Source: Marsupella aquatica (lineage: Eukaryota; Plantae; Marchantiophyta). Taken from it: a DNA stretch of 64,000 nucleotides. The number at the start of each line of letters is the position of its first letter. Within the stretch, counting starts at the first letter, position 1. The notes below the pieces were generated by a model that did no database searches, was not told where the DNA came from, and saw only the letters and a program-made list of their open reading frames with translations. This document shows positions 1-30,427 of the stretch, one piece after another. The translations under genes were made by a program, and so were the position numbers. Location of the stretch: contig OZ316894.1 in NCBI GenBank assembly GCA_973895155.1, positions 18,514,805-18,578,804 of the forward strand, in the 5' to 3' direction.

Positions 1-3000
1 GAACAAAAGTTTGTGAGGAGACCTTGGTACTTTCGGGATACTCGAATGATGTCCAAGGAAGCAGCTGACTGGGAGACACCCGTTCTTTGGGTTCAAGTGA
101 AGAAAACATAGAAGATTACACTCTCCTTTGGTCCAGTAATTTGGGTTGCCGCATGTGACTTTAAGAAGGGTCATGGGAAGGAAAAATCTGTCGCTATTGG
201 ATTGAGCTTCCTCACAATGTGTGGAAGCAAGGGTTTTGTGGCCCTTGTCGTGGACATGGATTTGTATGATCTCTCAACATTAGACAAATTTCCCAAAGAC
301 CCTATTGTGAAGGAAGTCGCGAGTACAATTGAGATGGAGATCTTCAAGCCTGAGTGGGTTGCTAATGTTGTGGATGATTCGAGTCCTTTGATGTTGCCGT
401 TTGTCCAAAAAGAGTATAAGAGACTCGTGGGTGAAGAGTTTAAACCCACACGAAGGATCAAAGTAAGGAAGCCAACCATTAGCGGGAGTGGCGCATCTTC
501 AGTTGCAAAAGGAGTTGATTGTGCTAGTGGGAGCGGGGGACATGGGAAAGGGAATTCCCAAGTAGAAGCTACCATGAGAGTGATTCTAGGTGAAGCACCT
601 CAATCTGTAGAGGCAAGCCCAAGCGCTACTGCAAGTGTTGGTCGTGGTCGAGGTCGTGGAAGGGGAGTTGTGGATGAATTGGTACCTGTCAAGGCAGAGG
701 TTCCATCGCCATCAACTTCACTTGCAAAGAAGAAGAGGACTGGTTGGATTGGAGGCACAGGAGTAGCTCTAGCTGCAGATTCAAGTGGTGCAATAAGCAC
801 TCCAGCTGTGTCAATGCATCAATCCAAAGAACGATTACCCCTTACCTCAGGTCCAACCTCAGCTGTCGTTAGCATTCCCCTGGTAAGTTTATTTGTCTAG
901 AAAAAATGAATGTTGGGAGCGATACTTGTATCACGCATTGCATTGAAATAATGAAAATGGTTTGCATTTTGAATTCTTCTTAAAATTCATTGCAAGCCAT
1001 GTTATTTTTCAGGGAGATGAGGAAGAAGAGACGTCGTTGGCTTCATTTGAGACAGATGCCATCAAGGCTGAACTTGCAAAGCTCATGCTTGAACGTAGAG
1101 TCCAGAGGACCAGTGTGCTTCTGCATGTCAATAATCTCATTTTTGAAGATGAGGGTGAGAATTCAACTTTAGTTAGACCTGTAGATCGGCTACATGTAGA
1201 GAACATCAAAATGTTGCTCATGAAAAACCCTTCCAACTTCATGGCTCCATTTGTTGTTGTAGTTGATCCAACAGATTGTCCCACAATTCATGAGTGGGAC
1301 ATTACTAAATCTAGGGTATGGAAGTATCGAGTGATTGGCGGTAATCATGGAGCTCGTGCAAAGGCTGAACTTTTCAAAATGTATGGAAAGCAAGTGTACG
1401 GTGAGATTGAGGCATGGGTTTACTCTGGTCTAACGAGACATGAGATCAGGATGTTGGCTTTCCAGCATAACTACGACCAGGAGTACCGTAAAACCATGAC
1501 ATCGATTGACAAAGTTCGTGCCTGTCACAATATTTTCATGGAAATGAATGTGGGGTCAACTAAAGAGGTGCGAGAAGCTTGTTGTAAGGAATGTATGCTT
1601 GATTACACTCCAGGTGTTCGTGACTCAATGGCCAAACATGACCCTACATTTCAGATTGCCTTTCGATCTGGGGAGATTTGGGAGCTCCAAGATAAAATTT
1701 TCTCTATGTGGCAAAAGTTTGAGATCCTTGGTCAAACAAAGCCAATCGTGGCCAAGTAGCTGTCAGCAACATCAAAAGGTAAATCAAAAGCTAAACCTAA
1801 ACCGCTGAGTGCAAGTGAAATCAAAATGAACAAGCTCTCTGGGCATTTCAATTTGAGGGTCTTCAGAGCTCTCCAGGGGCTTTCCAATCAGGAGCATGTG
1901 AAGCGACTCCTAAACAGAGTAATTGGAAAGAAAATCACTCTAGAACAAATGTTCAAAGAAGGTGAGACACTTAAGAAGTTGGCAAAGGTAAAGAAATTGT
2001 TCCTGCAGATTTCTGGTCAAAAAGATTGGGCAACATGCCGGGAAATGTTTCCCCAGGAAACTGATGTGAAAGTCCTTTCAACTTGGTGCGAAAAGCTCAC
2101 AGAAGCAGTAAGCACAATGTCCTTATGGCCTTTTGTTTTCAGTTATATATATTCAAAGCAAACATTTGAGATATTGAATGCAGGTAGTGTTACTTGTATC
2201 ACTGGTGGCATTCAAAATTTGTGTTTGGAAATCTTACAAAGAGTTTTGTTTAATGTGCAGTTCAAAATCAGTTCAAAGAGGAAGAAAAAAGTCATTTCTG
2301 GAAATGAATTTGATGAGGGCGTGGAGGTCGAGATTCCTTCATGCGACATCCCCTACGTCTTCAAGAACTATGTTCTTGAAGCAATTGAAAAACACAATCG
2401 GAGACTGAATATCTCATCAATTGCTACTGCTTCATCTCAACATCAATGGAAGAATGCAAATGGAGACGCATTCTCATATTCTCTTCATGTTGGAGATATT
2501 CGGAAACTAGAAACCTTTCTAGAGCCAAAACATTTCACTTTGGCAATTGCAGACATCCCGTACGGTTTCAATGCCCCTGGTTCTCAGTTTGACGAGGAAC
2601 CTTTCACTGAACAGGATGTAAATGAGATGGTTACTAATTTTGCTAAAATCACCACCTCTCCATTGTGGAGGTTTGTTATGATCCATTCCTTGCAGCAGAC
2701 AAATAGCGTTATGAGCGCACTTGAGAAGGTTTGCAATTGCGGAGTTGAGGCCGGTATATGGGAGAAGACAAACATCCATGAGCACCCTTCTGGGCCAAGG
2801 CTAGCTTGGGCTTTTGAGAACTGGTCAATTGGTTATTACAGTGAGGATGGAGTCCGAAAGAAGGAGATGTACAATTTTGCTCCTGATGAGTCCAGGGTGA
2901 ACATTGTGAAAGTTCCCTGTGTTACTACAAAGTGTGTGAGTCTATTAGGGTTTATTGTAAACCCTTATCAAAAACCAATTGCATTGGGTGATTGGTTTGT

Positions 3001-3376
3001 TAATCATTTCAGTGAGAAAGGGGACTGGGTGGCAGACCTTTGTTGTGGAACTGGGTCAACATTGGTGGCTGCACTTCTCAACTCTCGGAATGGGTGTGCT
3101 GTTGACAAAGGTGAGACTCAGGTAGAATTTTTGAGGAGTCGGATTATGACATTGGAATCTGTTTGGACTCTATACGATGAAGCACAAGTGTCCGGTGAAG
3201 GTGGCCAGGGACAAGAAGTTCAGCCTCCGGTTGGTGGGCAGTTGGGAGTCATTGGTACTAGCATTTATGTGGATACTGATGACCAGGAGGAGCCTGAAGA
3301 AAATGAGCCAAACATTGAAGAAAAGCTACCTAGAACACCGGACGACGGGGAACTCAATGATATGTTGTTAGATTAG
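1..3376 (+). pseudogene. ParB/Srx-like domain + beta-class N6-adenine/N4-cytosine DNA methyltransferase (multi-exon, 5' end outside window)
   Basis: One frame after removing GT-AG introns 883-1012 and 2108-2260; in-frame TAGs at 109-111 and 1757-1759. ParB-like VRPVDRLHVENIK...YRVIGGNHGARAK. MTase motif IV LHVGDIRKL...LAIADIPYG precedes NPYQKPIAL...SEKGDWVADLCCGTGSTLVAA..R...VD (motif I), the beta-class order. Confidence 0.85.
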
Positions 3377-6300
3377 ATGTGTGCAATAACACTATTGAGG
3401 ATTTATCAAGGCTTTCTATTAATGATTGAGAACCTTGATAAACATATCTCTATTTGAGGTTTGAAATGCAATTGGCGATACATGTATCGGATGTAGCATT
3501 CCCAACAACATTCCTACCTATCTGCACTTTTCCTACTCTAACTAGTCACAGTCATCTGCATCAATGATTTCCGTGTCGAGCATTGCTGCTTGGATGATTC
3601 GCTTTGTTTGTACTGGAAGCGTGTTGTTTGAGAGTAGTGCAAAATTATATGCATAAATTGCAGTTTCTGAGAGGCACAATGTGTCCTCAAGTAACTTGTT
3701 AGAGGATGCAGCTTTTTTAGGGTAATATTGACCTTCCATAGCAGACCCTTCTCGAGAATCCATTGTATACCATACAATTTTGATGTTCTCTGGAACATCT
3801 TGTACTTTGGATAGAATATCTATGACTTTTGCCATCCAAAATGGTCTGCTGTTTGGATCCCTATATGCAGCCACGCAAATCATTGCATATTTAGTGTTCA
3901 CTTCAAGATCTTTGAAGTCTCCCTCGACTGCTTTCTTCTTCCTTGTTCCAGAGTACATGACTGTTGTTGCACCTGCAATTTTATCTAGCAAGGTTGGCTC
4001 TATTTGTGGGGGAAGTGCATTTCTTGGAGTCTCTACTCCAATATTTGATTTTGGCCACGTCCAATCAAAAACCCATTGTCCTTCCTTCAAGTGGTGTTTA
4101 ATCACTTCTTTCTGGTTGTCAAAGAAACGGAGCCACCAAAGTTTATCCTCATCATCAAAATAATTGAATCCATCTTCAATTGATTTGCGATATTTCTCCA
4201 GGACTGCAACATGGTTGCAGAGAAGACGCTCGTCTCCATTGCCTCCGTCATCATGTTCATCATTCTCCATTGTTGCTCCGGTTGTAGATTTCAATGCCAT
4301 TTGTGCAGCAACCCACATGGTAGATGTGGGGATGTATCTAAGGAACTCCACTGCTTCTCCCCAACTTTGAGTGCTAGAAAGATGCTTTGCGTGAAACAAA
4401 GTCGAAGTTCCTCCATTCTCTCCTACAACCCTCTTCATCCTAAATTGCTTTTGACCACTAATACCATGTAGAGGACACAAAACATGCCCAATACCTCCCA
4501 TGTCATTGGGTTGGTCTTTATCCGACACAAACTTCTTGAAATCAGCAACCTCTTCAACAAAAATTATCTCAGCCTTTGGATTGTACGAATCCTTGAGAAT
4601 GTCTGCAAGACTATCCACCCGAAAAGCTTTTCGCTTATTTAATTTTGAGGAGAACTTGCTGAACATTTGGTCAATCTGATCATGGGTATGTCCAACCAAA
4701 AGAAAACCAACTTTGATCTTTTGGAAAACCCTCATCTCAACAAGCATATTCAAATATGCCATGAGAAATTTATTTTTATTTTCTCGAGGGGTATTATCAA
4801 GTTGTAGATACAACACTGGAGGGAGTGGACCTTCCCAACTATTTAAAATATGTTGGATCACATGCACTGTCAAGTTGGTGTCGTTGTGAATGTTTGGATA
4901 ATTCAAAAACACTTTTGATGTCAAATGTCCATTGAACACCAAACAACCCACCACATGTACCGGAATAAAGTACTTCTCGTCCATGTTTTTGGGGCACCTA
5001 GTGAAATGTGGCAACTCAGTCTTTTTTTGATCCATACCATCAATGCAGATCCCCAAATATTTTTCTGGACTCTTATAGCACTTGCTTCGGTGCTTTGCTA
5101 ATTTCTCGCTCTCAACTCCTTGTGCTTTCCGATGTTGGTTCAAAAGTGTTGAATATTTTCCTGTCAAATGAACGTCAATGTTTTTGTCAATAATAACCGC
5201 ATCACCAAACCAAACAAGTAAATAATGTAGTACTTAACATCAATCCTTTACTTATTTAAAGGTAGACACAACTTACATTTTTCTGCTTCAAATACTGCTT
5301 TGTCGCGAAGTGCTTTGAACTCTGTGCAAGGACCGCATGTGGAGAAGCGACTCTTTTTTGGAATATGCACCCTGGGGAACTCTTTGTTCCAGATGCGAAC
5401 AAACCAAGAATATGTGATCTCGGTTTCCTTCCACACCATAGTATCAGTCTTGAAAGCATCAAATACTTCAGCTTTCGTCCAATTGTCTGGTAAGTGGAAG
5501 ATGTCCTTGTTTGGAAGACTTTCAACATTTGACATGAAAAACTCATTCAACCATTGAACTAGTGAAAGATGAGTAACCGATTTTTCCTTGCAAAATGTGT
5601 CATTTTGAATACGAGAAAACGTATTCCTTGAGATTCTCTGCAGCCGATTATTTCCAACGGAAAATAATTTCTTGAAACCTTCTCGACAAAAAGATCTCCC
5701 GTCAACAATGTAACCGGTTGGACCACCGTGCCCACTTTTCAAACAGCCCCTTAGAAGTATGTTCTTCTCGGTCGATGATAAGCCATAATAGAAAGTCCGG
5801 TGTTTTGTCACTAAATCTAGACCAAAATATCTCAAACACAAATTATCACAACATGGGTACTTAAAAACTTCTTTCATTTTTTTTGTCTTTAAATTTTGAT
5901 TTGTAACATTATCTTTCCTCACAAGCTTGTCTCTCACTTTCTTGCTAAGCTCCTTTTGTTTCTCCATACTGTGAAATCCATGGAGTGAATGTTCACTCTC
6001 TTGTCTCTCTGCAACTTCCAGAATAGAGCCATTAGTATCTTTTGAGCTACTATCATCTGAAGATAGAGTGGGATTTCTCGGATCACTAAAGAGATGACTA
6101 TAGCTACTCTCGCCCTCATTTGTTTCCAAACATTCTGATACAACTTGTGCAATGGCTTGCGACTGTCTATTTTCCTCAACATCTTCCTCCTCACTTGACT
6201 CATCAGAAAACACTATTGGACTTCTTGGTTCTCTGTACATAATTCGGACTCCGCTAAAACTAGTGAGGCCTCGTCTAGCAACTTGAAGACGTCTAATTGG

Positions 6301-7769
6301 CTGTCTAGAAACACTCCTAGTTGCAGAAGTGGGTCTGGTGGTCATCAATGGTGTGTCTTGATTGTTCCCCAAACTTGTATTGTGTACACGAGCGGCTGCC
6401 ATTGGTCCATTGATTGGAGAAGCATCGAATAATCGTTGTACACATCTTCCCACTGCAATTTGAGATTGCGCAGATTCTGGACTTTGTAGTCCGTTGTCTT
6501 TGCTGTTGCTGGGAACCAGTTCTCTTTGACGCAATGCAGACGGCAATCCACGTACCGTTGTGTGTATTGTACCTTGCATTCTCACGTCTGTCCCAAGAAA
6601 TATCCTTCGCTGCACCTGTGGCAAAACTGATTCCCTCAAAGGCAATGCAAATGGCGATACACATATCGCTGTTTGCATTCGACCTTCTCATCTCTCCTTT
6701 GGCACCTGTTGGAAACTTGAAGCATCAATTGGAGATCCCAATCTCGTTGTCGATACGCGTATCGTCTTCTTGATTCCTTCACCATACCCAGGGATAGACG
6801 GTCTAAATCGACGTCTAGAACCTAAACCTTGGATAGAAAGCTTTTGCATCCGAGGGGAGGGAATGTTTAGGAGCCGACGTTTATCAGGTTTACTAGGTGA
6901 CACATAGTAAGCCCCAGGTTCTGGTTCAGAACTTCCATCAGAATCAGAGTCCGATATTTCGGGTACACTCTATTGAGAAACTGGGAGTAATTTGCGAATA
7001 TGATTTGGCAAACATCGACGACCATGAGGACCACCATTGGGGGAGGACTCAACTGAACTGGAGGGCGACCACTCTTTAGACATGGCTAACGTATAACTAA
7101 CTCTATACTGGTGGGCATTCCTGTCACAAAATGCTCTTATGCTCAAAAAACTCAAATAGACGCATAACTTTGTGAAACAAAATGGTGCAAAAAACTTAGT
7201 CGGCGTTGATGTATTTATAGTTTTTGGTGACCCTGAGCCACGTGGCTACTTCTGACTGGTCAGCCGCTACACGACAAAATAGATTGGGTGATTAAAAAAG
7301 GTTCAAATTAGTGTTTTAACGACAAAATTAATGTACATGTTAAGTGTTTCCTTCAGGGTGGATGCAATTTTTATTCTATTTGGGATATTGTATAGTGGAT
7401 TGCTTTAATCAACCATTGAGACAATTTGGTTCTAGATGCGATACAAGTATCGCTTTTTGTATTTTGGGGTGATTTTTTCAAATTGGTCCTGTAAAAGGTG
7501 CACATATTGTGCTTTGGAGTTATGTACCATAGTTTTGCTGATTCACAATCACTTTTCATGATGGTTAGGCGGAATGGTTACCATGATTTTGTCACTTAGT
7601 TTACTTTTTGGTTAAAAGTAGATCAACTGCGTTGAACTGTGTAGTAAATTTTGGGCAACTATGATGTAACTTTTCAAATTGTTGATAGTAAATTTTTTGA
7701 AAGGAGAGGTTGAGCTACTTTTGGAGTATATTCTCAAATGATGAATGTGGTTTGCGATACGAGTATCGC
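919..7769. repeat. Dispersed 16-bp palindrome GCGATAC-NN-GTATCGC (6 copies)
   Basis: Copies at 919-934, 3475-3490, 6654-6669, 6750-6765, 7438-7453 and 7754-7769, each with 0-2 mismatches to consensus. Confidence 0.8.
3542..7083 (-). pseudogene. Sola-like (DUF7869-type) DDD transposase
   Basis: Motifs ICIDGMDQKK, LYLQLDNTPRENKN, VGHTHDQIDQMFS; upstream Cys clusters (CCDNLCL, FCREGF, CGPCTE). ATG at 7083, in-frame stops at 6970 and 6688, intron ~5161-5276. Confidence 0.75.
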
Positions 7770-8092
7770 TAGTTGCTTTCCTTTATATGTTTGGGTTTGG
7801 AAGCAAAACTATTTTCCATGTGTACAAGTTGACGGAAAATAAGGATTTTCCATGTTGGAAACAAAGTTGAACGTTGTCAACAACAAACAGTACATTTCAG
7901 AAGTTTAAATATATATAATGAGGTAGTCTGTGGGCATTGCTCACCCCTTCAATGAAATCCCATCTACGATACAAAAATGTAACTATTGGGATATTGCGGA
8001 ATTTTGGATCGCTATTTGTGTCATTTCAACAAAATTGGCGAGAATGAAAAACACCCTTCTCTATGTGCGGAAATACTTCTCAATTGGTCTGA

Positions 8093-8328
8093 AATCATGT
8101 TATGTGCGCAACTGTGCACCATGTCACCTTCCCAACATTGATGGTACAGTAGATCCAAGCTTGGCACATGTTTGTGCTGGCTTGAAATGTATGTTGTGTG
8201 GATTTGCTCAGGGAGCAGCTACTATGTTGATTTGTGATAAGTGTTCTAGAGGATGGCACATGTCATGTTTGACACCACCATTGCAGGTGATTCTTAGTGG
8301 ATCATGGTTGTGTCCTCACTGTCGGTGA
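8093..8328 (+). pseudogene. PHD-finger C-terminal tail of a Ty3/Gypsy-type pol (5'-truncated)
   Basis: RNCAPCHLPNIDG...CMLC...MLICDKCSRGWHMSCLTPPL...WLCPHC (C4HC3), followed by a purine tract (ctaggggggcgat, ~8491-8503) and a TG-starting LTR-like sequence. Confidence 0.65.
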
Positions 8329-15540: not shown

Positions 15541-15634
15541 CGCTACGAGCTCTGCAAAGGTATCGTGAAATGCTCCCGATGCTTCTCCAGACTAGAGTGC
15601 CTTTATACTATAATGTCCCCCTTTATGTTAGTTG

Positions 15635-15785
15635 TGTTATAACCCTAGTTAGACCTAGTATAACCCAGGGTTATGTCTACTCTACCAGGGGCAGGAATAA
15701 CTGCCTAACTACCAAGTCCTTAGGGACACACTATGTAACACCTCGGAAATGGAATGGAAGGATTGATTCTATGGAGAACACAACA
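15635..15785 (+). repeat. 5' LTR
   Basis: tgttataacc...gaacacaaca, identical by eye to 19997-20147. Confidence 0.95.
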
Positions 15786-15798
15786 CGTTATCAGCACG
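15786..15798 (+). promoter_or_regulatory. Primer binding site (half-tRNA-Met type)
   Basis: cgttatcagcacg immediately after the 5' LTR, the PBS typical of Bianca-type Copia. Confidence 0.75.
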
Positions 15799-15967
15799 AA
15801 GCGCTCCACATTTTTTTTCCTCCCGATCAATTCGTCAGCCAAAGGGACAGCGGACAACATTTTTCTCTCTGATCCATAATTCGGACGATCCACAATTCGG
15901 ACAATCGGAAGTAGCAATCCGACGAGGGAGAAACTGACAAAGAGGGACGACCAAGAGCGAAGTCCTT

Positions 15968-17437
15968 GTGCAGAATAGGGGATTGCAAATCACAACTTTA
16001 TTAAACTTATATTGGAGCATGTTGACATCCACAAACTCAATCGAAAAATTACTGTTCCAGGCTCTACACATCGACGGATCAAACTATCTCTCTTGGTCCC
16101 TCGATGTGGAGGCACACCTAGCCGCCAAGGACCTTCAGGATACAGTCATAACGGATGCGGGCCCAACGCTACAGCAAAAAGCCAAAGCTCTCATTCTAAT
16201 CCGGCACCACCTAGCGGATTCACTCAAGAGACAATACATGAACGAATTCAACCCCCGGGTTCTATGGGAAGAACTCCTTTCCAGATTCAACCACACACGG
16301 ACGATTTTCTTGCCAGCAGCCAGGCATGACTGGGTGAACCTCCGCGTACAGGATCATAAGTCCATTGCCGATTACAACAGCGAGCTTTTCCGGATAGTGG
16401 CGCAGTTGGCAATCTGCGGCCAACCAGTCACTGATGAGGAACAAATTGAGAAAACTCTGTCGACACTTCATTCATCTAATCTCGTCCTCTCAACACAATA
16501 TAGGAATATGCGGTTTACCAAATACTCGGAGCTAATAGCACACATGCTATTAGCCGAGAAGCACCAACTACTTCTCCTACAAAATACCCAACAACGACCC
16601 CCAGGAACTCTCCCACCTCAGCCACCATCAGAAGCGCACTACAACGCACCAAATCGAGAACAAGGAACTTACCCCCGAGGCAGAGGAAGTTTAAGAGGCA
16701 ACTCCAGAGGCCGCGGATCATTCAGAGGACGAGGACCATTCAGAGGTCGGGGAGGTGGCCCTCGACGAGGCGGAAACAACAATGGATCCCGGGGAGGAGG
16801 CTACGGACGACCCCGCACATACAACTGGAGACCTACCTGGCAACGCAACAACAGCAGCCAACGATTACAATCAGATAACGCTGAAAACCCATCAATTTGT
16901 TTCCACTGTGGCACTAAAGGGCACACACAAAGAACATGTAGAGCCCCAACACACTTAGTCGATCTATACAAGAAAAGCCTTACTGCAAACGAATCAGAAA
17001 CATATGGCACCTTTCTTGAATCAGCGGAAATATTACCAGAAATACATATGATCACTTCGGGAAACCAACCATCAATAAACGAACTAAACCACTGCATTAT
17101 AGACAGTGGTACCTCGCACTCAATATTACAAAACAAAGTATACTTCAAATATATTATACCATCACAACGAAAGATAACGACCATAATGGGCCAGCACCAG
17201 ATCGAGGAAGGCTCTGGACCCGCAACAATCATCCTGCCCAGAGGCACAGTTATATACATTCAATCGGCTATCTATGCCCCAAGGGCAACGAGAAACCTCT
17301 TGAGCTTTAAAGACATTAGAGCAACTAACTTACATATACAGACGGGCATAGAGAACAACAAGGAAGTCCTGCACATTACTTCAAATACACCCAAGCCAAC
17401 AGCGAAGTACAAAGACTACTCCACCTTACGAGCATGA
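15968..17437 (+). CDS. gag: Copia Gag + aspartic protease (truncated before integrase)
   Basis: Zinc knuckle CFHCGTKGHTQRTC; protease CIIDSGTSHSI; no HHCC or DDE integrase follows. Confidence 0.9.
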   Translation: MQNRGLQITTLLNLYWSMLTSTNSIEKLLFQALHIDGSNYLSWSLDVEAHLAAKDLQDTVITDAGPTLQQKAKALILIRHHLADSLKRQYMNEFNPRVLWEELLSRFNHTRTIFLPAARHDWVNLRVQDHKSIADYNSELFRIVAQLAICGQPVTDEEQIEKTLSTLHSSNLVLSTQYRNMRFTKYSELIAHMLLAEKHQLLLLQNTQQRPPGTLPPQPPSEAHYNAPNREQGTYPRGRGSLRGNSRGRGSFRGRGPFRGRGGGPRRGGNNNGSRGGGYGRPRTYNWRPTWQRNNSSQRLQSDNAENPSICFHCGTKGHTQRTCRAPTHLVDLYKKSLTANESETYGTFLESAEILPEIHMITSGNQPSINELNHCIIDSGTSHSILQNKVYFKYIIPSQRKITTIMGQHQIEEGSGPATIILPRGTVIYIQSAIYAPRATRNLLSFKDIRATNLHIQTGIENNKEVLHITSNTPKPTAKYKDYSTLRA

Positions 17438-19564
17438 TGGAGCAGTTACCAGATTCATTCGCAGATGCGGCAAAAGTGACAAGATCGCACATACCCGCAG
17501 CGAACACCCCATCACGTATACAGATGACAAAGCAGCCAGCCGAATACTCGGCGCCAAGGGCCAAACGGGGAAGACCACCCGGGGCTACTGACAAGCAACC
17601 ACGGCAGAGGCGCCAAGTGCCCTCAGCCCAAACTACATCCACTCCTGCAGCGACGACCACATTATACCGAACCAACCCATTACCGAAACAAACGAAGAAA
17701 TCGCCATCAATTACAATATAACCAGCAATATATGGGATAGAAAGAGTACCTTCCCAGACGAAACATTTGCATATACAATAGCACAACAAATAAAAGAAGA
17801 CACACCGGACCCACTGACAGTGAAAGAAGCACAGAGACAATCCGACTGGCCAGAGTGGGAGAAAGCCATCAATCAGGAACTCGACTCCCTGATCTCCAGA
17901 CAAGTATTCGGCCCAATCACACTAGCCCCACAAGACATCCACTTGACAGGATACAAGTGGACCTTTATTAAAAAGAGAAATGCACAGGGGGAGGTAGTAC
18001 GCTATAAAGCACGGCTAGTAGCAAAGGGATTTACTCAAATACCAGGCAGAGACTACGATCTCACCTACTCACCCGTTATGGACGTAATTACTTACCGATA
18101 CCTGATATCCTTCTCACTGCATCACAGATTATCCATGCATCAGTTAGCTATTGTAACAGCATACTTATACGGCCACTTAGATACGACAATCCATATGGAA
18201 GCTCCACCAGAATTAATTAACAGGGTGGAAGCACACTGTCATGGGGAGAAACTGCCCACGACAACACACAAACCAGAGGACACTATGTTTGACCACTCAA
18301 ATCAAGAGATACTACAACGTATCTCACAGAGTATAAAATCGAAACCCCACATAAGCAAGGGCAGACAAACTAAGGCTCTTCAAGCCAGAATACGATATGC
18401 TGTGCAAGTGCTCAGGTCCATGTACGGCCTGAAGCAGAGTGGCCGAACTTGGTACAAGCGATTCCAAGCTGAAATGCTCGCCATGGGTTTCCAAAATCAA
18501 GATATTGCCCCATGCATCTTCCTTAAGAGAGAAGGCCAAGAATTCATTATAATTGCCATCTATGTGGATGACCTAAACCTATTCGGTACCAGTCGAATAA
18601 TGCAGGAAACCATCAAATTACTCAAACGAGTTTTCGAAATGCGTGATTTGGGGCAAACTACGTTTTGCCTTGGCCTCCAGTTCGAGCATTTACCAAGAGG
18701 CATACTTCTTCATCAAACCACGTATACACAGCGAATATTAAAGCAATTTCATATGCAAAAGGCTCATGCAGTCAAATCCCCGATGGACATAAGATCACTC
18801 GATAAACATAAAGACATGTTTCGGAAAAGAGATGAAAGCGAACCACTACTTGGTCCAGACAAGCCATACCTATCTGCCATAGGCGTCCTCATGTTCCTTG
18901 CAAATCAGACCCGCCCTGACATCGCATTCGCAGTTAACCTCTTAGCATGTCACAACGCACAGCCGACCATTCGCCATTGGAATGGCATTACAAGGATCTT
19001 ACGATACCTTAAGGGCACAACTGACATGGGACTATTTTACCCTGCAAATACAGACAACACATTAACAGGTTACGCGGACGCGGGCTATCTATCAGATCCG
19101 CAGGATGCAAAGTCGCAGACGGGATACGTGTTTATGATAGGAACAACGGCGATCTCCTGGAAAAGCAGCAAACAAACATTAACAACGACATCCTCGAACC
19201 ACTCGGAGATCATAGCGCTATATGAAGCAAGCAGGGAGTGCATCTGGCTCAGGCATGTGCTCAACCACATTAGCGAACACACAGGTACAACTAAACTGAC
19301 ATCGCCCACACCGATCTACGAAGATAACAGGCCCTGTGTGGACCAAATACAGGCAGGTTTCATAAAGGGTGATAAGACGAAGCACATCGCTCCGAAATTC
19401 TTTTTCACACACGAGCAACAAGGTGACAATATTACCGTTAAATGGATAGCAAGCTAGCTGAATCACGCAGATATGTTTACAAAATCACTACCACCGGCTA
19501 TCCATAAAGACCATTCACATTCCATCAGCTTACGAAGCTTCTCTAAGTTGATGCAGGAACAATA
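17434..19564 (+). pseudogene. pol: Copia post-integrase linker, reverse transcriptase and RNase H
   Basis: LPDSFADAAKVTRSHIPAAN linker; RYKARLVAKGF, YGLKQSG, YVDD; RNase H YADAGY..YEDN..KHI, TAG at 19455, then NHADMFTKSL. Confidence 0.9.
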
Positions 19565-19996
19565 GAGACCACAGAGAACACTTACCTCGTGTTCAGGGGG
19601 AGCATTGCCGCCAGGACGCCCGACCGAGCGCCCGACCACCTGAAATGCAAGAATACAACTCGGACCACGCAGAACATACCATCCAACACCATCAACAAAC
19701 AACAAAGAACTCTACGACTACGAAGAACCAGTTCACCAGACTGGACAATCATAAAGATACACCCAGTAAAACAGAAAGAAGAACACTTACTGTTACAAAG
19801 TGACCAAGATAAGGGCAATAGGCCAAACTATCAAATGGGTGATGGTAACACTCTTTCCCCCCACAAAGGCGGAGGGGGGGTTTTAATGAGGTTACATCCC
19901 CATTTAAATAGACATAATAGCTTAGGCCTCAATATAAAACAGAGTAGACACAAGTGGGAGTATCATTTACCCAGAAATGTTACCCCCAAGGGGGAG

Positions 19997-20147
19997 TGTT
20001 ATAACCCTAGTTAGACCTAGTATAACCCAGGGTTATGTCTACTCTACCAGGGGCAGGAATAACTGCCTAACTACCAAGTCCTTAGGGACACACTATGTAA
20101 CACCTCGGAAATGGAATGGAAGGATTGATTCTATGGAGAACACAACA
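19997..20147 (+). repeat. 3' LTR
   Basis: Follows the PPT, precedes TSD AGTTG. Confidence 0.95.
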
Positions 20148-20925
20148 AGTTGGGGGTTAATTATGCTATATATTGTGGGCTTATTAGGTGTGCGGCGCAA
20201 AACAGGCATATCAACGTACAGTTGCCGTGACAAAGCTAGCACACTATTTTTTGGTGGGTATGGATGATCATTGAATGTATGTACCCAGATCTATTTTCAG
20301 TTTGATTTTAAATGATTCCCATTTTGACCATGAGGCAATGCTATATGCATGGTGCAACTTTTGGGGACTATAAGAAGTCACAAATTAAATTAACACTCTA
20401 GTGCCATTTTGTGCAGTTTTGTATTTTTTGTTTTTGGAGGGTCGGGTCGTTGCTTTTCCTTGGTTTTCTTAGTAGGGTTTATTTTTGCCAATGCATTATG
20501 CACAGCGAGAGTACGCGCATCCAAAAGGTATGACATATATGATCCTCCAAAATGTATTGGAAATATTTGACATGATATATGCGTTACTTGTGGGAGTTTA
20601 TAATTGGACATCCAACTCGTCATTGATTTTTATTAATTTCATTAATTATTGGTTTGTTACTTAGGTTTGCATGTATGTCATCTCATCTTTCAACTTCCCC
20701 ACCTAGCCTGTATGTGCAGGTTTTTTTGGATTGGCCTTAGCATATAGTCTAAGGCTTAGAGCCTAGTAGGCACTGTAGAGTGCGGATATCATTCAGGTAC
20801 TAATTAAGTCCAACACTGCAAATTATTAACATACTATATATTTCCTGTTTGGGTTTACCTCAAGTTAGGGTGATGAATCAATCTTGCATTTTGGTAAAGA
20901 CTTGTTTGTGTGTAATTGGCAGACA

Positions 20926-21782: not shown

Positions 21783-24700
21783 TCATTTTTTGGCAAGGTC
21801 AAACGTCTGATCATTGCGTGCCTTCCAAATAGCCCACAGGATCTGATACATCAAAAATAGACGAAGCGTGCTCCGAGGGCTCTTCTTAAGCGATAAGGAG
21901 ATTAATTCAACCAGGTTCTGATGTGGTTGAATGATTGTACCATTCAGCCAGCCCTGCGCTTCCCTCCAGCAGCGCTGTGCATGTCTGCATTTAGTGAAAA
22001 GATGAGGAATAGTCTCTATCATCCCAGGGCACAGAATGCAAATTCCATCTAACTTGGCAATTCTCACTGCTCTTGATCCAGAGAATAGTCCCTGTGCCAA
22101 GACCCGTCAGAGAAACGTTTTTGCTCTGGTGGAAAGGTCTGCTGTCTAGATGAGCAACCAAATCTTGCTCCATTCTTCATCGGTATAGCTCATTTTGCAT
22201 ATTTTGTTCAACCTGAGGTGATCCGTTCCTTTAGGCCTCAGCATTTTGTATACCCGCCAGTTGGGTAGGCCAAACTGCCAAATCCGTATGTCCTTGTCAG
22301 ACCACTGCCATTGACAAGCGAGGGTATCAAATCCACTACCCAGGAAAATGGATCCATGGACCACTCTGATCAGTGCAAGGCATAAGGTTCGGTCTCCATC
22401 GGTGAGGCCTCTCAATTGGTTCAGCCTAGTATCCAAGTTCCTCCAGTCATTCGTAGCAGAGGACCAAAAATCCCCAACCTTCCTGATTCCTAAGTTGCCA
22501 CAAAGTTGAGTCACTGTCCCAATGGATGCCTCAAGCAGGTCATAGAAATCCTGAGAGCATCGAACTAGATCTTCCAGTATCCAGTGTCCAGGGATCGCAT
22601 CCACCCCAGGGTGGAAAATCAGGTTTTCCCTAGCAAGTGCCCATGCGCCCCAGAGTTGCCCCGTGTAAGTCAATTTCCCGAACGATCATGGTGAACCCAG
22701 TAGCATTAGATCTGACATAGAGTAGTGGTTCTTGCGTATAGATCGATAGTTTCTCCATTTTGTCAATCCCAAGTTTACAGCAAAGAGTTTCGCCCATTCC
22801 GTCTCCGGGTGATCCAACGCCCCTGTGAACCACTTACAGAGGAGTGCATCAGAATGACTTTTGAAGTCTTTCAGGCCAAGTCCGCCAACATTCTTTGGCC
22901 TGCACAGCTTATCCCACGCCACAAGGGGTAACCTTTTACCCCCCGTCCTGTTGTTACCCCAAAGGAAATTCCTGCTTAATGCTATCAATTTCCTAGCCAG
23001 TGCAGTCGGGGAGTGTAGAAACATCATATGATATATGGGTATAGCCTGCAAGACATGTTTAACAAGCAAAAGGCGGCCCGTAAATGACAGAAAGCGTGAG
23101 GACCATGAAGATAGTCGTGCGCTAATCCTATCCAGACAGAAGCCATGTAACTGCGCTTCTGACAAGCCAGCTCCCAATGGAGCACCCAAGTATTTTTGCA
23201 CCATTCCTGATTCACTGATAACACATCCCGTCGCTCTAAGCCATCCAGGAATCTCCTCTACTCCCAAGGGGATAACAATGGACTTTTTGAGATTGAGTTT
23301 TGCTCTAGTGGCACATTCGTAAGTGTTCAATGTGCTTGTAGCCTGTTCGAATGCTAACTCCGTAACAGGGATGAATAGACCCATGTCATCCGCAAATAAT
23401 CTAAATGAGATATTCAAGTCAGGAGTAGTTTGAAATCCTTGTAATCTCCCTGCCCTGATTTCCGCATTACAAAAATCCATTAGCGGTTGGGTCAAAATTG
23501 CAACAATAGAGGGGAGAGAGGGCATCCCTGTCTCACCCCCCGACTCAACTGAATATCTTCAGTCCAGATCCCGTTAACTAGAGCCTTGGAATTTGCATTA
23601 CTTAGTAGCAACTTGACCAAGAAGATAAAATGAGACCCAATGCCCAGTAGGTGCATTGTTTCCCAGATGTAGGAGTGATCCACTCTATCAAACGCTTTCT
23701 TGAAATCCAGCTTCAGGAATAGAGCCGGTGTATTCGTAATGTTAATCCAATCATTCATGATCAGCTAGGTAATGGAGATATTCTCTAAAATATTTCTGCC
23801 AGGGATGAATCCTGTTTGTTGTGGGCAGATCAGTTTAGAAAGCAATGGTTTTAATCGTTGTGCCAGTAGTTTGGCAATAATCTTGTAAATGATTGTCAAC
23901 ATCGTGAGCGGTCGCCAATCCCCCAGCCTTCATTTGTCAGTCTTTTTAGGAATGAAACGAATGACTCCCTCCTTTATCTTGAATGCAAGATGTCCCGTAC
24001 GCCAAAAATCAGCCACCATGGAGTGTAGATCCTCCTTTAAAAAATCCCAGCATGCACAAATTCCCTCAGCTGTCATCCCATCAATCCCCGGAGCCTTGTC
24101 ACATGGTAAAAGTAACAGGGTACAATGCAACTCCTGTATTGAGGGTAGAGCCTCTAATCTTCTGATTTCATCACTCGTAAGTGCAAACCGAGTATGAGCA
24201 CAGAGTACACGTCGAGCGGTGAGCATATCTGATAGCGCCTCCTCTAAGAGGAGCGGTGGTGAATATAGCTCCTCGCAATGTCTCTGCACCTCCTTGATTA
24301 CTAGCCGTTCATCCTGAATCTCTTGTCCTCCTTCCACTACCAGGTACTCCATGTTTTCCCTTTGCCGCTTTGCCTTGACAGTAGAAAAGAAAAACTTGGA
24401 AGTTTCTTCACCCTGGCCAAGCCATCTGATCCGAGATAGACGTCGATTGTGATGTGCCTCCTCTATCTCCATTTCACGTACACAATCCTCCGTATACATG
24501 AAATTCAAAGTGCAAGAGGATGAGTGATCCTCAACAATAGCCAACTTTAGCATTCGTAGCCTATCCTTCATTAACAGCATCTCTTCCTCCCAAGGTAGGG
24601 GCGCAGCTTGTAGCTCCATATAGCATTTTCTTAGCCTTTGATATGCCAGTGCGAATCTCAGGTGTGGGTCCAAGGGAGGAATGTCAACCCCCCAAGCCCC

Positions 24701-25531
24701 AGTGAGTAGTTCTACATTGCCTTGTTTCTGTAGAACCGCAGGATTGGCCTTGAAATACGTCGCTCGCCTTTGGTTTGCTCCAGCCAGTATTGGGAGGGTA
24801 AATCTAAAAGTAAGTATCACCGGATCGTGGTCAGAAAGCGCAGATGTCCCATCGTGCAGGAGAGCCAATACTTCCCCCGTCCAACTCCCTTTTTCACTGA
24901 GATAGAATCGGTCTAGGCGTGACTGTATTAATCTGCCATTGCGAACCCTTCTCCAAGTGAATTTGGATCTAGTAACCTGACCCAAGATTCCAAACACATC
25001 TTGTAAGTCCAGTCTTGTAGTAAGGAACCTCCAGAATTCTTTCTCTCTACCGCAAATCAAGGGGGAGGAACTAGTGGAGTCACCCCTTAATTCCGTCATA
25101 TTAAAATTGCCATCGAAGATCCACCGATCCTGAGGCAGAGCATTCCGAAGATCATTCCATAGTAGAGTCCTTTCTCCAGTGGAGCAAGGAGCATACACAC
25201 AGATTGAACCAAAATTTCCTTCAGTATGTTCTACTTGGATCCAGACCGCTCGGCTCTTATCCAACGTGCCGGATGTAAGCACGTTAAACAACGGGTGCAA
25301 TAGAATGGCAATACCACCTCAGCCCGCATCCGGGAGAGAGTAAAAGTGCTGATATGTAGGTAAAATGATTTTGAGAGCAATGTCCAATCTGAAACTGTCA
25401 GCCTTAACCTCTTGGAGCATCAGTGCATCTAGGTGAGGTCGGTTGGCTGAAACCCATTTAGATACCACAATTTTCCGATTTGGATTGCATAAGCCACACA
25501 CGTTCCATGTGGCCACCTTGAAAGTTGTCAT
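21783..25531 (-). pseudogene. LINE ORF2: APE endonuclease, RT, zf-RVT
   Basis: TWNVCGL, LQEVK, SRLDRFY, SDHDPV; KAPGIDG, KLDFKKAFDRV, GVRQGCPLSP, LFADD; CILC..ETIPHLFTKC. Split over several frames. Confidence 0.92.
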
Positions 25532-25667
25532 GAAAATTCAACTTAATCAATTAACCTCCCTGCTCCAGCCTAAGGCTAAACGACACCTCGTAGGAGTTAG
25601 ACGCTTTCTTGCAGGGAGCCCACCGAGGGCCCAACAGGTAAAAGCAACAGTGCCGCCTTAGGTGACC

Positions 25668-27474
25668 TTACCATAGCATTAGGATCAAGTGAAAAATTGC
25701 TACCACCTCACAGGGGGAATCCAAGACATTCAACATTACATCAGGTGATAGGGGAGGAGCCTCAGTAGCGCCCGAAATTGTCAAGGCACCAGTCGGGTGT
25801 TGCAGATCTCTTCGCGCTCGCTGACTGGGGGTGCTCCATCCATCATCATCCTGCAAGCGGTGATCAGCAACAAACTGTAAGGCACGCTGATTCCTGGCCT
25901 TCTTTTTCCCCTTTTTCTTTTCATCCGGTGGGGACCGCTTAGCCAATTTCCTGGCCCGATCCTTTTTAACCGTTAAATTAGAGATGAATCCTTCATACTC
26001 TGACAACTCCATGTCGGAGGGCTTCTCTAAAGCAGACAGCCCATCGCCTTCTTCCATTTCCTCTGAGGTTTCCACATCCTGATGCGGTAGACCCGGATTC
26101 TCATCTGGCTCCGCAACAATGAGAGGAGTATCAACTGATCCTGTTCTAGCCAGGTCTTCTGAATTGTTCAGATTATCATTTAATACAGCCGAGGCATAGT
26201 GCATTGTTTGTAGGTTCTGCATGACCTTAGAGATAGCGGTGGCACCAGCCCGTAGGTGAAGAGCAATCACTCTCGCCCTTCCTTCATCCGTGCATTCATC
26301 TACTTCTCGCTCAATTACCACCAAAGGAGGCACCGCATTCCCCCCCATCGCACTACCAAATAAAACAAAATCCCCATTCCATCCGCCGGTGGAGGCGCCC
26401 TGCTCGCAATCAGAGTGTCACTCTTAGCAATAGGTGTTTCCTTGCCCACTTGATCCACCACGGAAGGGAGTGCATTCACTGTTGCAATAGATCCGGCGGG
26501 CACCGTGGCAGGAGCCAACGGTGGGGCAGCGTTCGGGGGTCGACGGGTGCAATACTCACCGGCTCCACAGTCTCATGTAATCTGCAATCCCAAGCGAGAT
26601 GACCTTTTTTGTTGCACTTAAAGCAGTGAAACGGGATATTTTTGAAAATGATAGGCTGCCAAATCAAAAGATCCGCTTTAATCCGGACCTCCACACTTTG
26701 TGGTAGCTCCCGCTGCGTGTCCCAAAGAATACACACACGATCATGCAGATAAGTGCTCAAATCATCCCCTTGGATGTAATGCAGTATATCTCCCAGAGAG
26801 GCAGCCAGCTTGCGTCGACATGGTTCAAGAATAAGTGCCTGGAATGGAATTTCTATCCACACCGGCAGCAACGTAAAGGATTCGTTCCGAATATCAAAAG
26901 AGGGATCCCAAGGGAAAGTAAACACATATTTCCGATCCAGAAACCAAGGGGCCCCCTCCAATGCCAGGTCACGATGCTCCAGATTTTTGAAAGCCACCAA
27001 ATAGAAGCTCTTCCCCACAAACTTTACTTGTGTCACAGGCCAGTGCATCTCCTTAACCAAGGTTTTCTCCACCCAGAATTTGAAGGTGGGTAGCATGGGA
27101 GCCCTGTCAGTAAAGTAGCACATCATGGCACAATTAAAGAGCTCCGTGACACTGACCGCTGCTTCCTCCAGGGACCATTCGATAGTCGTGTGCAGTTTAG
27201 ATGGCCAGTCTTGAACTAAGAGATCCGCAATGCGCTTGAGTAAAGGAACACAGGCCTCAGCCGCCTGCTTGTTGGTCTCCATGGGTCTCCCATGGTCCGG
27301 AGCAACAGTCCTACCCAGAGTTCGCGACACCGAGCCAGACCACTGCACAGCATTTGCATTCCTCCTCGCAGATTCCCCAGCAATTATTGGCTCGTCCTCC
27401 ATTCTTTCCCCAATGTCGTCATTGAATCTTCCAGCTTGTCCATCGCCAATCTCTCTATCTTCTCCCGATCCCAA
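25668..27474 (-). pseudogene. LINE ORF1 (DUF4283-like + CCHC knuckle)
   Basis: GAPWFLDRKYV..W, PVWIEIP, CFKCNKKGHLAWDC; frameshifted C-terminal part. Confidence 0.85.
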
Positions 27475-28435
27475 CGAGAGAAGCCATTGGAATTGTCACC
27501 AGAGGGTCAAAGCCCGAACCAGCTCTGGGCCGCAACAGCAGGCATGACTAAATAATTTTCCTTGACGCCATCAGGTTGATTCTCCTGGTTCTCCCCGGAG
27601 CGCACATCCTGTCCGGAATACCTATGTTTCAATTCTTGACGGGATGTATCGTGGGAGGTGGACGCATGAGAATCATGTGTCGGTGGTTCCGACCGAGCAA
27701 CAGGGTTAGCCTAGTATCTAGCTCCACCTTCGGCATCGCGCCGGGAGGTCTTTTCTCTCAAAAGAGCAGGTCCAACTCCACGACCATGATAGCCATAGTT
27801 GGGGCGGGTGTTCTCCATATGTTACCAAGTGTAGCCAGGTCTAGAGGATTCAACAGTATACACCAATCTCCCCGCCCACAGGTCCACCCTATGATGTTTG
27901 TTGATATAGACTTCCGTGCCGAGAATTCTTCTCCAGGGATAAAATAATCAGCTCACCAATCGACAGCAGGTGCTATCAACAGAGCGCAGCGAGTCCCCAA
28001 ATCTATAGCCAAGTTTAGCAGTTTCCCTATATCAGTCACTCTACATTGAGGTAGGATCACATCAAATCAGATTCTTCCACCACGCTCACATGCCTTATCG
28101 CGCAAACACTGCTTGGGCTCCCTTGATCAACTCCACCAACTACTTTAGGGTGGACAAAAACCGCGGCCGTGAACCTTGCACAGTGCCCTATTCATGTGAA
28201 AAAAACCTCCGGCTTCCAAAATCCCCCCAGATGGTTTGATTGATAGCAGAATCACCTCTGTCTAAGAGATAAGCAAGATTAGCACATGAAAAAACCATCC
28301 AGTCGATCAAAAACCCGAGAGAAACCCAAACCCTAGTGCACCTCAGCTCCGTCAGTTCTCTTCTTCAGCTCCGTCAGTCCGTCGGTGCCCCTTTAGGAGA
28401 CAAGTATTAATTTTTGTTTGTTTATGATTGAATAG

Positions 28436-29409
28436 GTGCCTTGTAGGGCCTGTCCTCCATTGGTCTCTAGTCAACTATGGCATGATGCATTCCTAGCTGG
28501 TGCTAGATAGTTGCTTGCATCATCAGTTGAAGACCCCGAGCAATCATGTACCCCCGCACATGTTCCGGCAGATGTTGTTCATGAACCCATAGTGGTAGAG
28601 TTGGGCATGGTAGGGATGATGCACCGCCCCCTACTAGGGTTCTACGCACAAGACCATGTTCTCATAGACGTCGACAACAACATGTAGTTCTAGACACAGA
28701 CCCATCCCATGAGCACTTTAGAAGGAGTGTTATGCCTCCACCAGGGGAGGAGTACATAGAAGTTGAAGGGAGATTGGGCTTATCATATGTGACGGGAAAG
28801 GCAATTAGTGTCTTCAAGGATTTTGACCCTGAGAGTTTTGCGATTCCTCGTGGCCTAGCCATTGATATCCCTATACATATATGGGGTCGGCAATGGATAG
28901 TGAAGGCATCGACCCTTGGCGGGGAGGTTGGATTAGGCTTATGTGCTTTGGAGGACATTGAGGTCCCTCCAAAGCCTTGGCGTCGTGGCTATGATGGGGA
29001 ACACCTTTTCCCTTACATTGGGCCTGTGTATACATCCAAGAGTTGGAACATCCTCTTGCGCCAACATCCAGCTTGGGGGGTATATGCATTGCAGATGGAC
29101 TCAGACCCAGATGAGGTCCTAAGGAGGCCTTGGCATTGTAGGATGATTGATGGGGACCCTGTGCGTTCAGATAACATAGCTGGGTACATCAATAGTACAC
29201 ATGGTAGAGGGAGTGGACTCCAGCCTAATGTAGAGTGGGCTCAGATTTTTGGCCCACCCACTCCGCCTTACTATGTCACACATATGGATGATCATGTTAT
29301 GACAGTAGCCATATGGACCCGAGTACGGACCATTAGGGCGGGTGATGAGTTGTTTTGTGACTATGAATGGAATGCACCCAAGATGGGCATTCGATCTGGC
29401 CACACTTAG
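28436..29409 (+). pseudogene. SET-domain exon inside CACTA-A
   Basis: GLGLCALEDI...PYIGPVY...YALQM...IDGDP...NIAGYINST...PNVEW...RTIRAGDELFCDYEW. Phase-0 acceptor at 28435; one TAG (28508) and one frameshift (~28600) upstream of the intact SET ORF 28732-29409. Confidence 0.8.
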
Positions 29410-29518: not shown

Positions 29519-30377
29519 AATGCATATGTTAAGCCGGATGTTGGGGTGTTACCACGAGCTATGCGCCAACACCTTGTGCAGGCCATGGAAGATTGGCGAC
29601 ATGCCTCTCTACCACCAGATGGCGATCCGGATGTTCCAGAGCAGGAACCAGATGCCTCCCAATCAAGAGTTGATGAAGATAGGGCAATGGATGACTTGAT
29701 GCACCAATTCTATGACATAGAGGATGGTGATCATGACATGGCTGATGGGGAGAACATTGAGGTCCCACTTCCACATCAAAAAGGTTCAAGGAGTTCAGCC
29801 TCCAAACAGTGGGAGGAAGCACGTCAACATGCGCAAACTCGGATATTTGATGGATCACGCTTGTCTCGTCTTTCAGCAATAATGTTGTTGTTGAACTTGC
29901 AGCAAAGACATGGAGCAAGCAACCTACTTCTTGATGATCTGTTTCGGACATTGCATGATTGTATCTTGCCAGAAGGAAACAACTTGCCAGACTCTTGGAA
30001 AGAGGCAAAGAAGGTGTTGAAGTCCATAGGTCTGCAGTACGAAGTCATTCATGCTTGCGTGAATGATTGCGTTCTGTTTAGAGGCACTTATAAAGTTGCA
30101 ACGTCATGTCCTACATGTGAGAAGCCTAGGTTTCGTGAGGACATGTTGACGGGAAAAGTCCCTCAGAAGGTCATGATGTACTTTCCTCTTATACCTCGTT
30201 TGCGCCACCAATATAGATGTGTTGAGTTGGCTGAGTATATGGTTTGGCATTCCCAAAATCGCTCAGATATGAGTTCACAACCACCCACCATGCGTATGAT
30301 GGTTGACTCCCCTGCAAACAAGTTTGTGGAGGAGAGATGGGGTGAGTTCCAAACTGACCCACATCATGTTCGCCTAG
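29519..30377 (+). pseudogene. CACTA-A TnpD transposase, 5' part (interrupted)
   Basis: LPEGNNLP, IHACVNDCVLFR, CPTC, YFPLIPRL, ...DPHHVRL| break at the insertion. Confidence 0.9.
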
Positions 30378-30427
30378 ATCAGCCTATTCATTAAAAGTGT
30401 ATTTTCTTTTGTTCACAAATCAGTCTT

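Follow-up and report, generated by a model that had tools for sequence, protein, structure and literature searches.

A ParB-like and beta-class amino-methyltransferase accessory gene of a DUF7869 transposon in Marsupella aquatica, and a dyad repeat bearing AAT at a fixed distance

The window analysed here is a stretch of 64,000 nucleotides from the liverwort Marsupella aquatica (contig OZ316894.1, positions 18,514,805 to 18,578,804 of the forward strand). Its left part belongs to a DNA transposon with two convergent genes, as follows. The forward-strand gene has three exons and encodes a ParB-like domain followed by a DNA amino-methyltransferase (MTase) domain; the reverse-strand gene encodes a DUF7869 transposase. 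Scattered through the element is a 38-bp dyad repeat whose half-sites mostly carry the trimer AAT at a constant distance from the dyad centre (Table 1). An earlier note on this DNA had described the MTase exon, and that part of its account stands; it lacked the fused ParB/sulfiredoxin (Srx)-like domain, the facing transposase with its repeat system, and the published precedent for such genes.

Table 1. Features of the transposon at the left of the window
Feature	Position	Strand	Remarks
Exon 1	1..882	+	Open at the window's left edge; conserved N-terminal domain, then low-complexity Gly/Arg/Ser linker; TAG 109-111
Intron 1	883..1012	+	GT-AG, phase 0; carries one dyad
Dyad 1	908..945		Intron 1; GAATG-N6-core 919-934-N6-CATTG; predicted target AAT 909-911 (+), 942-944 (-)
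Exon 2	1013..2107	+	Putative ParB/Srx-like domain (VIGGNH at 1331), likely helix-turn-helix (HTH) region, further helical segment; TAG 1757-1759
Intron 2	2108..2260	+	GT-AG, phase 0; 153 bp; carries one degenerate dyad
Dyad 2	2176..2213		Intron 2; 3 mismatches in the core, AAT present on both sides
Exon 3	2261..3376	+	Linker, beta-class amino-MTase domain (about 2462-3160), acidic tail
Dyad 3	3464..3501		Between the 3′ ends of the two genes
Transposase exon 2	3542..5160	-	DUF7869, Pfam E 2e-50; IDGMDQ, LQLDN and GHTHD motifs; convergent with the MTase gene
Transposase exon 1	5277..7083	-	Predicted ATG 7083; intron 5276-5161
Dyad 4	6643..6680		In the low-complexity N-terminal coding part of the transposase model
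Dyad 5	6739..6776		In the low-complexity N-terminal coding part of the transposase model
Dyad 6	7427..7464		Upstream of the transposase; AAT on one side only
Dyad 7	7743..7780		Subterminal; AAT on one side only
Probable right end of element	8080..8105		About 8099-8102, then ATGT

The spliced model of the MTase gene has 1030 codons counted from the window edge, and the start of the gene may lie to the left of the window. For comparison, a scan of metagenomes gave nine related loci, six of them close (L001–L006). The two introns, 882/1013 and 2107/2261, are proposed from conservation and splice signals and agree with those of the earlier note. An AG acceptor stands directly 5′ of exon 2 in L001, L002, and L005, and a GT-AG intron at the same codon as intron 2 is found in all five relatives tested, with gaps of 221–488 bp between the exon matches. 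A database protein, P0064, continues from exon 2 directly into exon 3. Intron 2 is open in frame in the window copy. Residues 1–127 of the open reading frame (ORF) at 112–882 match L001 (36%) and L005 (31%) by tblastn; this N-terminal domain has no Pfam assignment and no match of 0.9 or more in the cluster atlas.

Exon 3 encodes a beta-class amino-MTase domain in the segment extending from 2462 to 3160. The frame from 2462 reads GDAFSY... and is free of stops to 3376, forming the 3′ part of a long ORF at 1760–3376. The motifs stand in the permuted order of the beta class: GDIR (2492–2503), the catalytic motif DIPY (2552–2563), NPYQKP (YQKP at 2966–2977), DLCCGTG (3035–3055), and VDK (3101–3109), the last being the acidic end of strand 2. 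That is, motif IV (DIPY) precedes motif I (DLCCGTG), which binds S-adenosylmethionine. A second DIPY, at 2345 in the linker, is a chance occurrence. The Pfam model N6_N4_Mtase matches at E 2.2e-7, with 31.5 bits where the cut-off is 26.7. Searches of the PDB sequences gave weak matches only (best E 0.034 and 0.015).

An AlphaFold model of the domain, made from 22 sequences, has a mean confidence (pLDDT) of 74 and a pTM of 0.78. Its best Foldseek match is CcrM (E 1.7e-12, TM 0.71), which VIA-align superimposes at Z 20.4 with a root-mean-square deviation (rmsd) of 4.4 over 221 aligned residues. Among 48,161 chains compared with VIA-align, beta-class DNA amino-MTases and Type III Mod subunits fill the first 11 rows (Z 20.4–15.6); the MT-A70 family comes below them (Z 12.2–10.2), and then unrelated rows (Z 6.4 or less). 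CcrM is followed by M.BceJIV, M.MboIIA, M.RsrI, N4CMT, and M.PvuII at Z 19.5–17.2, so that the enzymes with which the earlier note wished to see the fold compared, M.RsrI, M.PvuII, and M.MboII, are all among the top matches. Motif order, Pfam, and the CcrM-like fold thus bear out the note's reading of a beta-class domain with DIPY in an intron-containing gene. Since enzymes that make N6-methyladenine (6mA) and enzymes that make N4-methylcytosine (4mC) match at close Z values, the fold fixes the class and not the methylated base. In the cluster atlas the domain matches PF01555 at 0.95.

DIPY departs from the strict motif IV pattern, [DNSH]PP[YFW] (PMC4738411). To judge from the sequences, this lowers the claim of the domain to be a "canonical" beta-class member, not its ability to work like one. 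D[IVL]PY is found in 22 of the 22 rows of alignment A1, and among the 137 family rows that cover motif IV, a count that includes near-duplicates, 108 have DxPY, 130 have Asp first, and 12 have DPPY, the DPPY rows being deeper members. Erm and KsgA, which are N6-adenine enzymes, use NIPY or NLPY. Because of these variants, and because the first proline of motif IV acts through its backbone carbonyl (PMC4738411), DIPY need not mean a dead enzyme. A protein that binds DNA without catalysis, i.e., a KorB- or VANC-like regulator or clamp whose MTase-fold domain does no more than touch or flip the outer AAT, would suit the non-canonical motifs IV and I and the lack of an intact motif IV in some family members (DLPR, DFPC, DVWY). 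We find this unlikely, as the deep family retains Asp, Pro-Tyr, GxG, and the acidic residue of strand 2, its deeper members have DPPY, and the residue that DIPY replaces works through the backbone carbonyl.

Exon 2, as modelled (pLDDT 77), has a ParB/Srx fold: Foldseek matches Noc/ParB at E 3.3e-5 to 4e-4, and VIA-align gives PadC (Z 10.8, rmsd 3.0, 100 aligned), KorB (Z 9.4), and sulfiredoxin (Z 8.5). GGNH is nearly invariant in the exon-2 alignment A2, at the place of the ParB CTPase arginine patch. The exon-2 profile matches Chara, Ginkgo, Riccia, Adiantum, and environmental MTase proteins, with E down to 1e-43 in the first round. Because these are the proteins that the MTase profile also matches, the ParB-MTase fusion is family-wide.

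Close homologues number 35 for the MTase domain (53–77% identity) and 21 for exon 2 (46–89%), and the MTase profile search gave 171 representatives at E 1e-10 or better. Eleven of 20 long representatives carry organism names: Chara braunii (7), Adiantum nelumboides (2), Riccia sorocarpa (1), and Ginkgo biloba (1). A search for longer homologues found only the Chara protein. P0076 (Chara braunii GBG86584.1) is an 1825-aa gene model with two tandem ParB-MTase units. In the distant relatives L007 and L008 (32–37%), a frame shift or stop-rich insert suggests an extra intron within the MTase domain. A quick tree of 53 domain-covering rows, with near-duplicate cluster members omitted, puts the window sequence in a 21-row clade with support 100 and leaves the host and origin of the ParB-MTase gene unplaced.

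The ratio of nonsynonymous to synonymous substitution rates (dN/dS) was calculated for the 15 pairs formed by the window and five loci. In the three with unsaturated dS it is 0.057, 0.057, and 0.066; in the other 12, synonymous sites are saturated, with a proportion of synonymous differences (pS) of at least 0.75 and of nonsynonymous differences (pN) of 0.11–0.22. By this comparison, the MTase gene is under purifying selection among relatives, as the earlier note had expected of its copies.

The transposase model is 1141 codons long; in the window copy, codons 38, 132, and 603 are stops. A convergent DUF7869 gene is present in four of the six close loci (L002, L003, L005, and L006); the other two end before it. 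We take DUF7869 to be linked to Sola transposases. The contigs of four public sequencing runs cover positions 1–8101 at about 99% identity. One contig of run X1 stops at 8101, and contigs of X1 and X2 continue into two different sequences after 8102 and 8105. This divergence marks the probable right end of the element and suggests that it has more than one insertion site. Beyond it, read depth rises more than 10-fold, the flank being a very high-copy repeat with a PHD-finger fragment (PHD E 3e-10); the X1 contigs have a depth of 72–130 along the element against 15–18 on some flank contigs, which is a hint only and not a copy number. The left end is outside the window. Of the three right flanks, two start with ATGT and one with ACAA; Sola1 transposons have a 4-bp AWWT/AWDT target-site duplication (PMC3845634) and terminal inverted repeats. 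The element is a DUF7869 cut-and-paste transposon, likely of the Sola1 type, an assignment that we prefer to a CMC/Chapaev-like one.

A domain of prokaryotic type in a plant contig raises the matter of bacterial or phage contamination, or else of a domesticated single host gene that merely lies beside a transposon. The fold is prokaryote-type, the nearest atlas clusters are mostly phage methylases (by features only), and the close homologues come from metagenome assemblies. Against this stand the conserved GT-AG introns, the CG/CHG decay described below, and the names of the family members, all of them streptophytes. No relative was found among 43 pattern-matched candidates from prokaryotic genomes and 25 from viral contigs, in exact-pattern scans that reach close relatives only. 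The linkage to the transposase is the same in four loci and the flanks differ. These explanations are already largely refuted, and we consider them highly improbable; the argument of the earlier note, that introns and transposon context speak against contamination, is strengthened by the conservation of the introns.

The window copy itself is a dead pseudogene, with five stops and a decay that is mostly C-to-T at CG and CHG sites (H being A, C, or T). The stops at 109–111 and 1757–1759, both TAG, are the only ones in the spliced MTase-gene model, in keeping with the earlier note, which had seen no other lesion there; the transposase has stops at 5277, 6690, and 6972. The contigs of the public runs have a sense codon at 109, 1757, and 5277 in four of four runs, and at 6690 and 6972 in two of two. 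Less-decayed siblings are therefore likely, as had been supposed, with the proviso that these contigs may be mosaics. An intact single copy is likely as well, judging from these sequences. Decay was counted from 57 differences listed against run X1, where one comparison listed 40 of its 179 rows, leaving aside 3346, 5108, 8204, and three further rows that X1 lacks. Of these differences, 43 are C-to-T in the window copy, 4 are the reverse, and 10 are transversions. The rate of C-to-T per 1000 available C is 50 in CG, 34 in CHG, and 4 in CHH, a pattern that points to plant-type decay of 5-methylcytosine (5mC) in the window copy relative to less-decayed siblings. Together with the Copia and CACTA neighbours and the streptophyte relatives, the CHG decay suggests a plant host. 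The observed/expected ratio of CpG is 0.81–0.86 in L001–L006, against 0.52 for the element in the window and 0.48 for the window outside it; this could reflect a difference between hosts or protection from methylation.

The 16-bp core of the dyad, GCGATAC-NN-GTATCGC, occurs seven times between 919 and 7769, against 0.57 expected, and nowhere in the other 56 kb of the window; none of 100 shuffles reached seven. The run contigs restore two of the dyads, at 933 and 6663, to perfect palindromes. In five of the close relatives (L001–L004 and L006), a core of the form GCGAKAC-NN-GTMTCGC occurs 39 times. The sixth, L005, belongs to a sister subfamily, whose exons 2 and 3 have no stop in the stretches translated; it has an asymmetric core, CCGATC-NAAA-CATCGG, 21 times, always in non-coding DNA. 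Every core type has CG at −7/−6. Over seven loci, 65 of 67 dyads are non-coding, though coding sequence makes up 70% of the bases. A family-specific motif enriched in the non-coding DNA of the element, here with two core types, is also what characterizes the sites of VANC anti-silencing proteins. In the distant locus L009 there are three 19-bp palindromes, none with an AAT at −18 when inspected by eye; three are too few to judge.

Outside the core, and separated from it by variable bases, the trimer AAT stands at −18 to −16 from the dyad centre in 12 of the 14 half-sites of the window. The spacers of these 14 half-sites are all different, and the probability of such an arrangement is about 2e-13 after correction for 16 offsets and 64 trimers. 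At the same offset, AAT is present in 58 of 78 half-sites in L001–L004 and L006 and in 21 of 42 in L005; no other offset exceeds five. Within L005 it is found beside CCGATC halves in 18 of 20 cases, against 2 of 21 beside CCGATG halves (Fisher P 1.7e-7). Because the core varies by subfamily while the distance of AAT is constant, we propose a single protein that touches the site twice, through one module that gives specificity at the core and through another whose reach is fixed. The ParB-MTase protein is the candidate binder, since it is the sole cargo protein and has such a two-part anatomy.

It is tempting to propose, with about even confidence, that this is a ParB-like and beta-class amino-MTase accessory gene of a DUF7869 transposon, and that the sibling protein binds the dyads and writes 6mA on AAT. 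The steps of this proposal are not equally secure. A protein from an intact sibling would quite probably bind the dyad through its ParB/HTH part, probably as a dimer, and its MTase domain would with similar probability be catalytically active. We share the view of the earlier note that 6mA and 4mC cannot be told apart by reading the sequence, but Asp first in motif IV (130 of 137 rows), the lack of SPPY, and the conserved AAT make us lean to 6mA, which would be the likely product. That the methylated target would be the outer AAT, 16–18 bp from the dyad centre, is more tentative, falling slightly short of an even chance, and we put at the same level a purpose in anti-silencing or self-licensing against host 5mC.

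A dyad that is bound and yet receives 4mC, for example on the core CG, would block host 5mC in a different manner. PvuII (Z 17.2) and N4CMT of bdelloids (Z 17.4) match only slightly less well than the N6A enzymes, the core types all contain the CG just mentioned, and some Asp-motif amino-MTases make 4mC. Furthermore, Marchantia has an active beta-class 4mC writer (bioRxiv 2021.02.12.428880). This alternative is nevertheless improbable: Ser is the usual sign of a 4mC enzyme (PMC8885841, PMC4738411) and SPPY occurs in none of the 137 rows, and the conserved outer trimer has no C.

Alternatively, the dyads are binding sites of the transposase, and the target of the ParB-MTase protein is a different or a broad one. 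Arrays are also subterminal (7438 and 7754 in the window, 207–587 in L001), and the window holds another DUF7869 element, which has twenty copies of a 23-bp palindrome of its own and no recognisable MTase. This too we think unlikely, to about the same degree as binding without catalysis, given that many dyads are in the introns of the MTase gene and between the 3′ ends of the two genes, kilobases from the termini, and that the palindrome of the second element has no AAT at a fixed offset (at most 5 of 40 at any offset).

Several observations count against the proposal of a ParB-MTase protein that binds the dyads and methylates AAT. As for the site, the AAT pattern was spotted post hoc; it is weaker in L003 (5 of 12) and L006 (2 of 8), and AAA takes its place in 10 of 92 half-sites. 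The dyads of the relatives are partly tandem copies, the distinct spacers with AAT being 20 of 23, 9 of 11, 4 of 10, 5 of 7, 2 of 8, and 19 of 39. The only two coding dyads among the 67 both lie in the N-terminus of the window's transposase, which makes two of the window's seven, and some dyads are subterminal, where the transposase could bind. As for the protein, the helical HTH-like part matches HTH and winged-helix domains weakly (Z 3–4), and the presumed recognition helix of L005 shows no obvious change by eye, yet its core has changed. ParB CTPases carry a GxxR arginine patch for cytidine triphosphate; the ParB part has GGNH there, which sets it apart, on sequence, from ParB CTPase clamps. 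In the MTase domain, Ile replaces the first Pro of motif IV and Cys replaces Phe in motif I, and purifying selection would be expected equally of a domain that only binds. Finally, the window copy evidently carried 5mC and decayed, so whatever protection it had would not have lasted, and none of the run contigs, which may be mosaics of copies, spans the element.

A wider reading, which we consider doubtful at present, is that streptophyte transposons carry an active, self-addressed adenine-methylation system that would give them a private activating mark against 5mC silencing. In such a system, by analogy, a ParB-like reader of a subfamily-specific palindrome would place a beta-class writer on the AAT of each strand; some restriction-modification enzymes also act at a set distance from their site.

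ParB-MTase transposon cargo has already been described as a kind, and what is new here is the two-part site with the fixed AAT. The Ectocarpus element Sola1-1_Ec32 encodes a 1104-aa protein with ParB-like and N4C/N6A MTase domains on the strand facing its transposase. Its authors suggest, with reference to Iyer et al. 2011 and to the Bostrychia paper, that the protein binds and modifies its own element (PMC12477816, Genome Biol 2025). The window gene has the same arrangement, that is, a ParB-like domain N-terminal to the MTase in one protein of about 1,000–1,100 aa, on the strand opposite the transposase within a DNA transposon; the likeness is one of description rather than of sequence alignment. 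Sola1-1_Ec32, in contrast, is from a brown alga, and the available account of it describes neither a binding or catalytic motif nor a class or a test of selection. In Bostrychia, Plavaka elements carry PAG2 (PF01555 with SET) and PAG3 (ParB with a 2OG oxygenase, beside inverted-repeat arrays) (bioRxiv 10.1101/2025.02.11.637652). These are likewise transposon cargo with a PF01555 or ParB-like domain for which self-marking is proposed; there, however, the MTase is fused to SET and ParB to the oxygenase, the element is EnSpm/Plavaka, and the account at hand describes no two-part site.

The VANC proteins of VANDAL/Mutator elements bind family-specific motifs in introns, spacers, and ends, often spread in tandem (PMC5735166). 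Those motifs are 8–9 bases long and non-palindromic, against the 38-bp dyad found here, and the same source, as far as it was available, describes no enzyme domain; binding and hypomethylation have been demonstrated for VANC, whereas for the window family they are our inference. With CcrM, M.BceJIV, M.MboIIA, M.RsrI (6mA), and M.PvuII (4mC), the window domain shares fold and permuted order (Z 17–20, 15–19% identity). It differs from these bacterial enzymes in having DIPY for DPPY and LCCGTG for FxGxG, a ParB fusion, introns, and no restriction partner.

N4CMT of bdelloids (PMC8885841) and MpDN4MT1 of Marchantia (bioRxiv 2021.02.12.428880) are, like the window gene, beta-class MTases of prokaryotic type in a eukaryotic nucleus. 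Both are described as host genes, N4CMT with SPPY and a chromodomain, whereas the window gene is carried by a transposon and has DxPY and a ParB-like domain; MpDN4MT1 is set apart on its description. By Pfam, the three exons have no chromodomain match, and no SPPY was found in the 137 family rows. The chlorophyte Dam with ParB-HTH (Group 2 of Iyer et al. 2016) has a catalytic domain of the M.EcoKI/M.TaqI type (PMC4738411), and the circular permutation of the window domain places it outside that group. Fungal transposons, for their part, carry TET genes (PMC12730594). We found in the literature no land-plant member, no site with AAT at a fixed distance, and no activity test; Repbase, Iyer 2011, and supplements may list plant members.

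Two 2025 papers propose that ParB-fused accessory proteins bind and modify their own transposon, and neither, in the parts available, gives a site or a test. With conserved catalytic residues, young siblings, and a two-part site, that published speculation becomes a prediction about one base. If it is true, transposons would have an enzymatic route of anti-silencing alongside VANC and the fungal TET genes, there would be a dedicated, sequence-programmed writer of locus-specific 6mA in plant DNA, and reader and writer would form a pair with a target core that differs from one subfamily to another. Should the enzyme prove dead, the gene joins the decayed cargo of a type already described.

The rest of the window is crowded with other elements. 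At 32304–34226 (-) and 46951–50719 (+) there are another DUF7869 transposase (Pfam E 8e-43) and a gene of two exons that contains an "SGQHSARA" motif. The latter gene looks ParB-like by eye and is not significant against the ParB-MTase profiles. The twenty copies of the 23-bp palindrome lie at 31870–47990, in and around both; nested insertions may here have split another element of the ParB-plus-palindrome kind. The idea that the segment 32304–34226 is a dead paralogue found no support, with hhalign probabilities of 0.3% and 1.6%, E 0.07–0.13 for the ParB-part profiles, and no MTase match. ORFs at 28585–29409 (+), 34106–34771 (+), 54589–55266 (+), and 30783–32048 (-) carry SET-like (E 0.003), BRCT (E 1e-7), PHD, and NIF-phosphatase domains and form more chromatin-type cargo among the transposons.

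At 15634–20151 there is a Copia-type long terminal repeat retrotransposon (RVT_2) with 156-nt direct repeats; as these are 99% alike, the insertion is recent. A remnant of a long interspersed nuclear element was recognized by eye at 22146–27495 (-). CACTA-type ORFs lie at 29519–30394, 35286–39035, and 61672–63223 (+), with Transposase_21 at E 7e-69 for the one at 35286 and the others assigned by eye. Two long ORFs (698 and 804 aa) at 55750–60338 (+), with no Pfam match at E 0.01, are perhaps a large unclassified transposase. A 39-nt inverted pair (30373–30411 and 60993–61031; 92%, 30.6 kb apart) and arrays of a 22-nt unit (30387–30525 and 50963–51287) are possible ends of larger elements.

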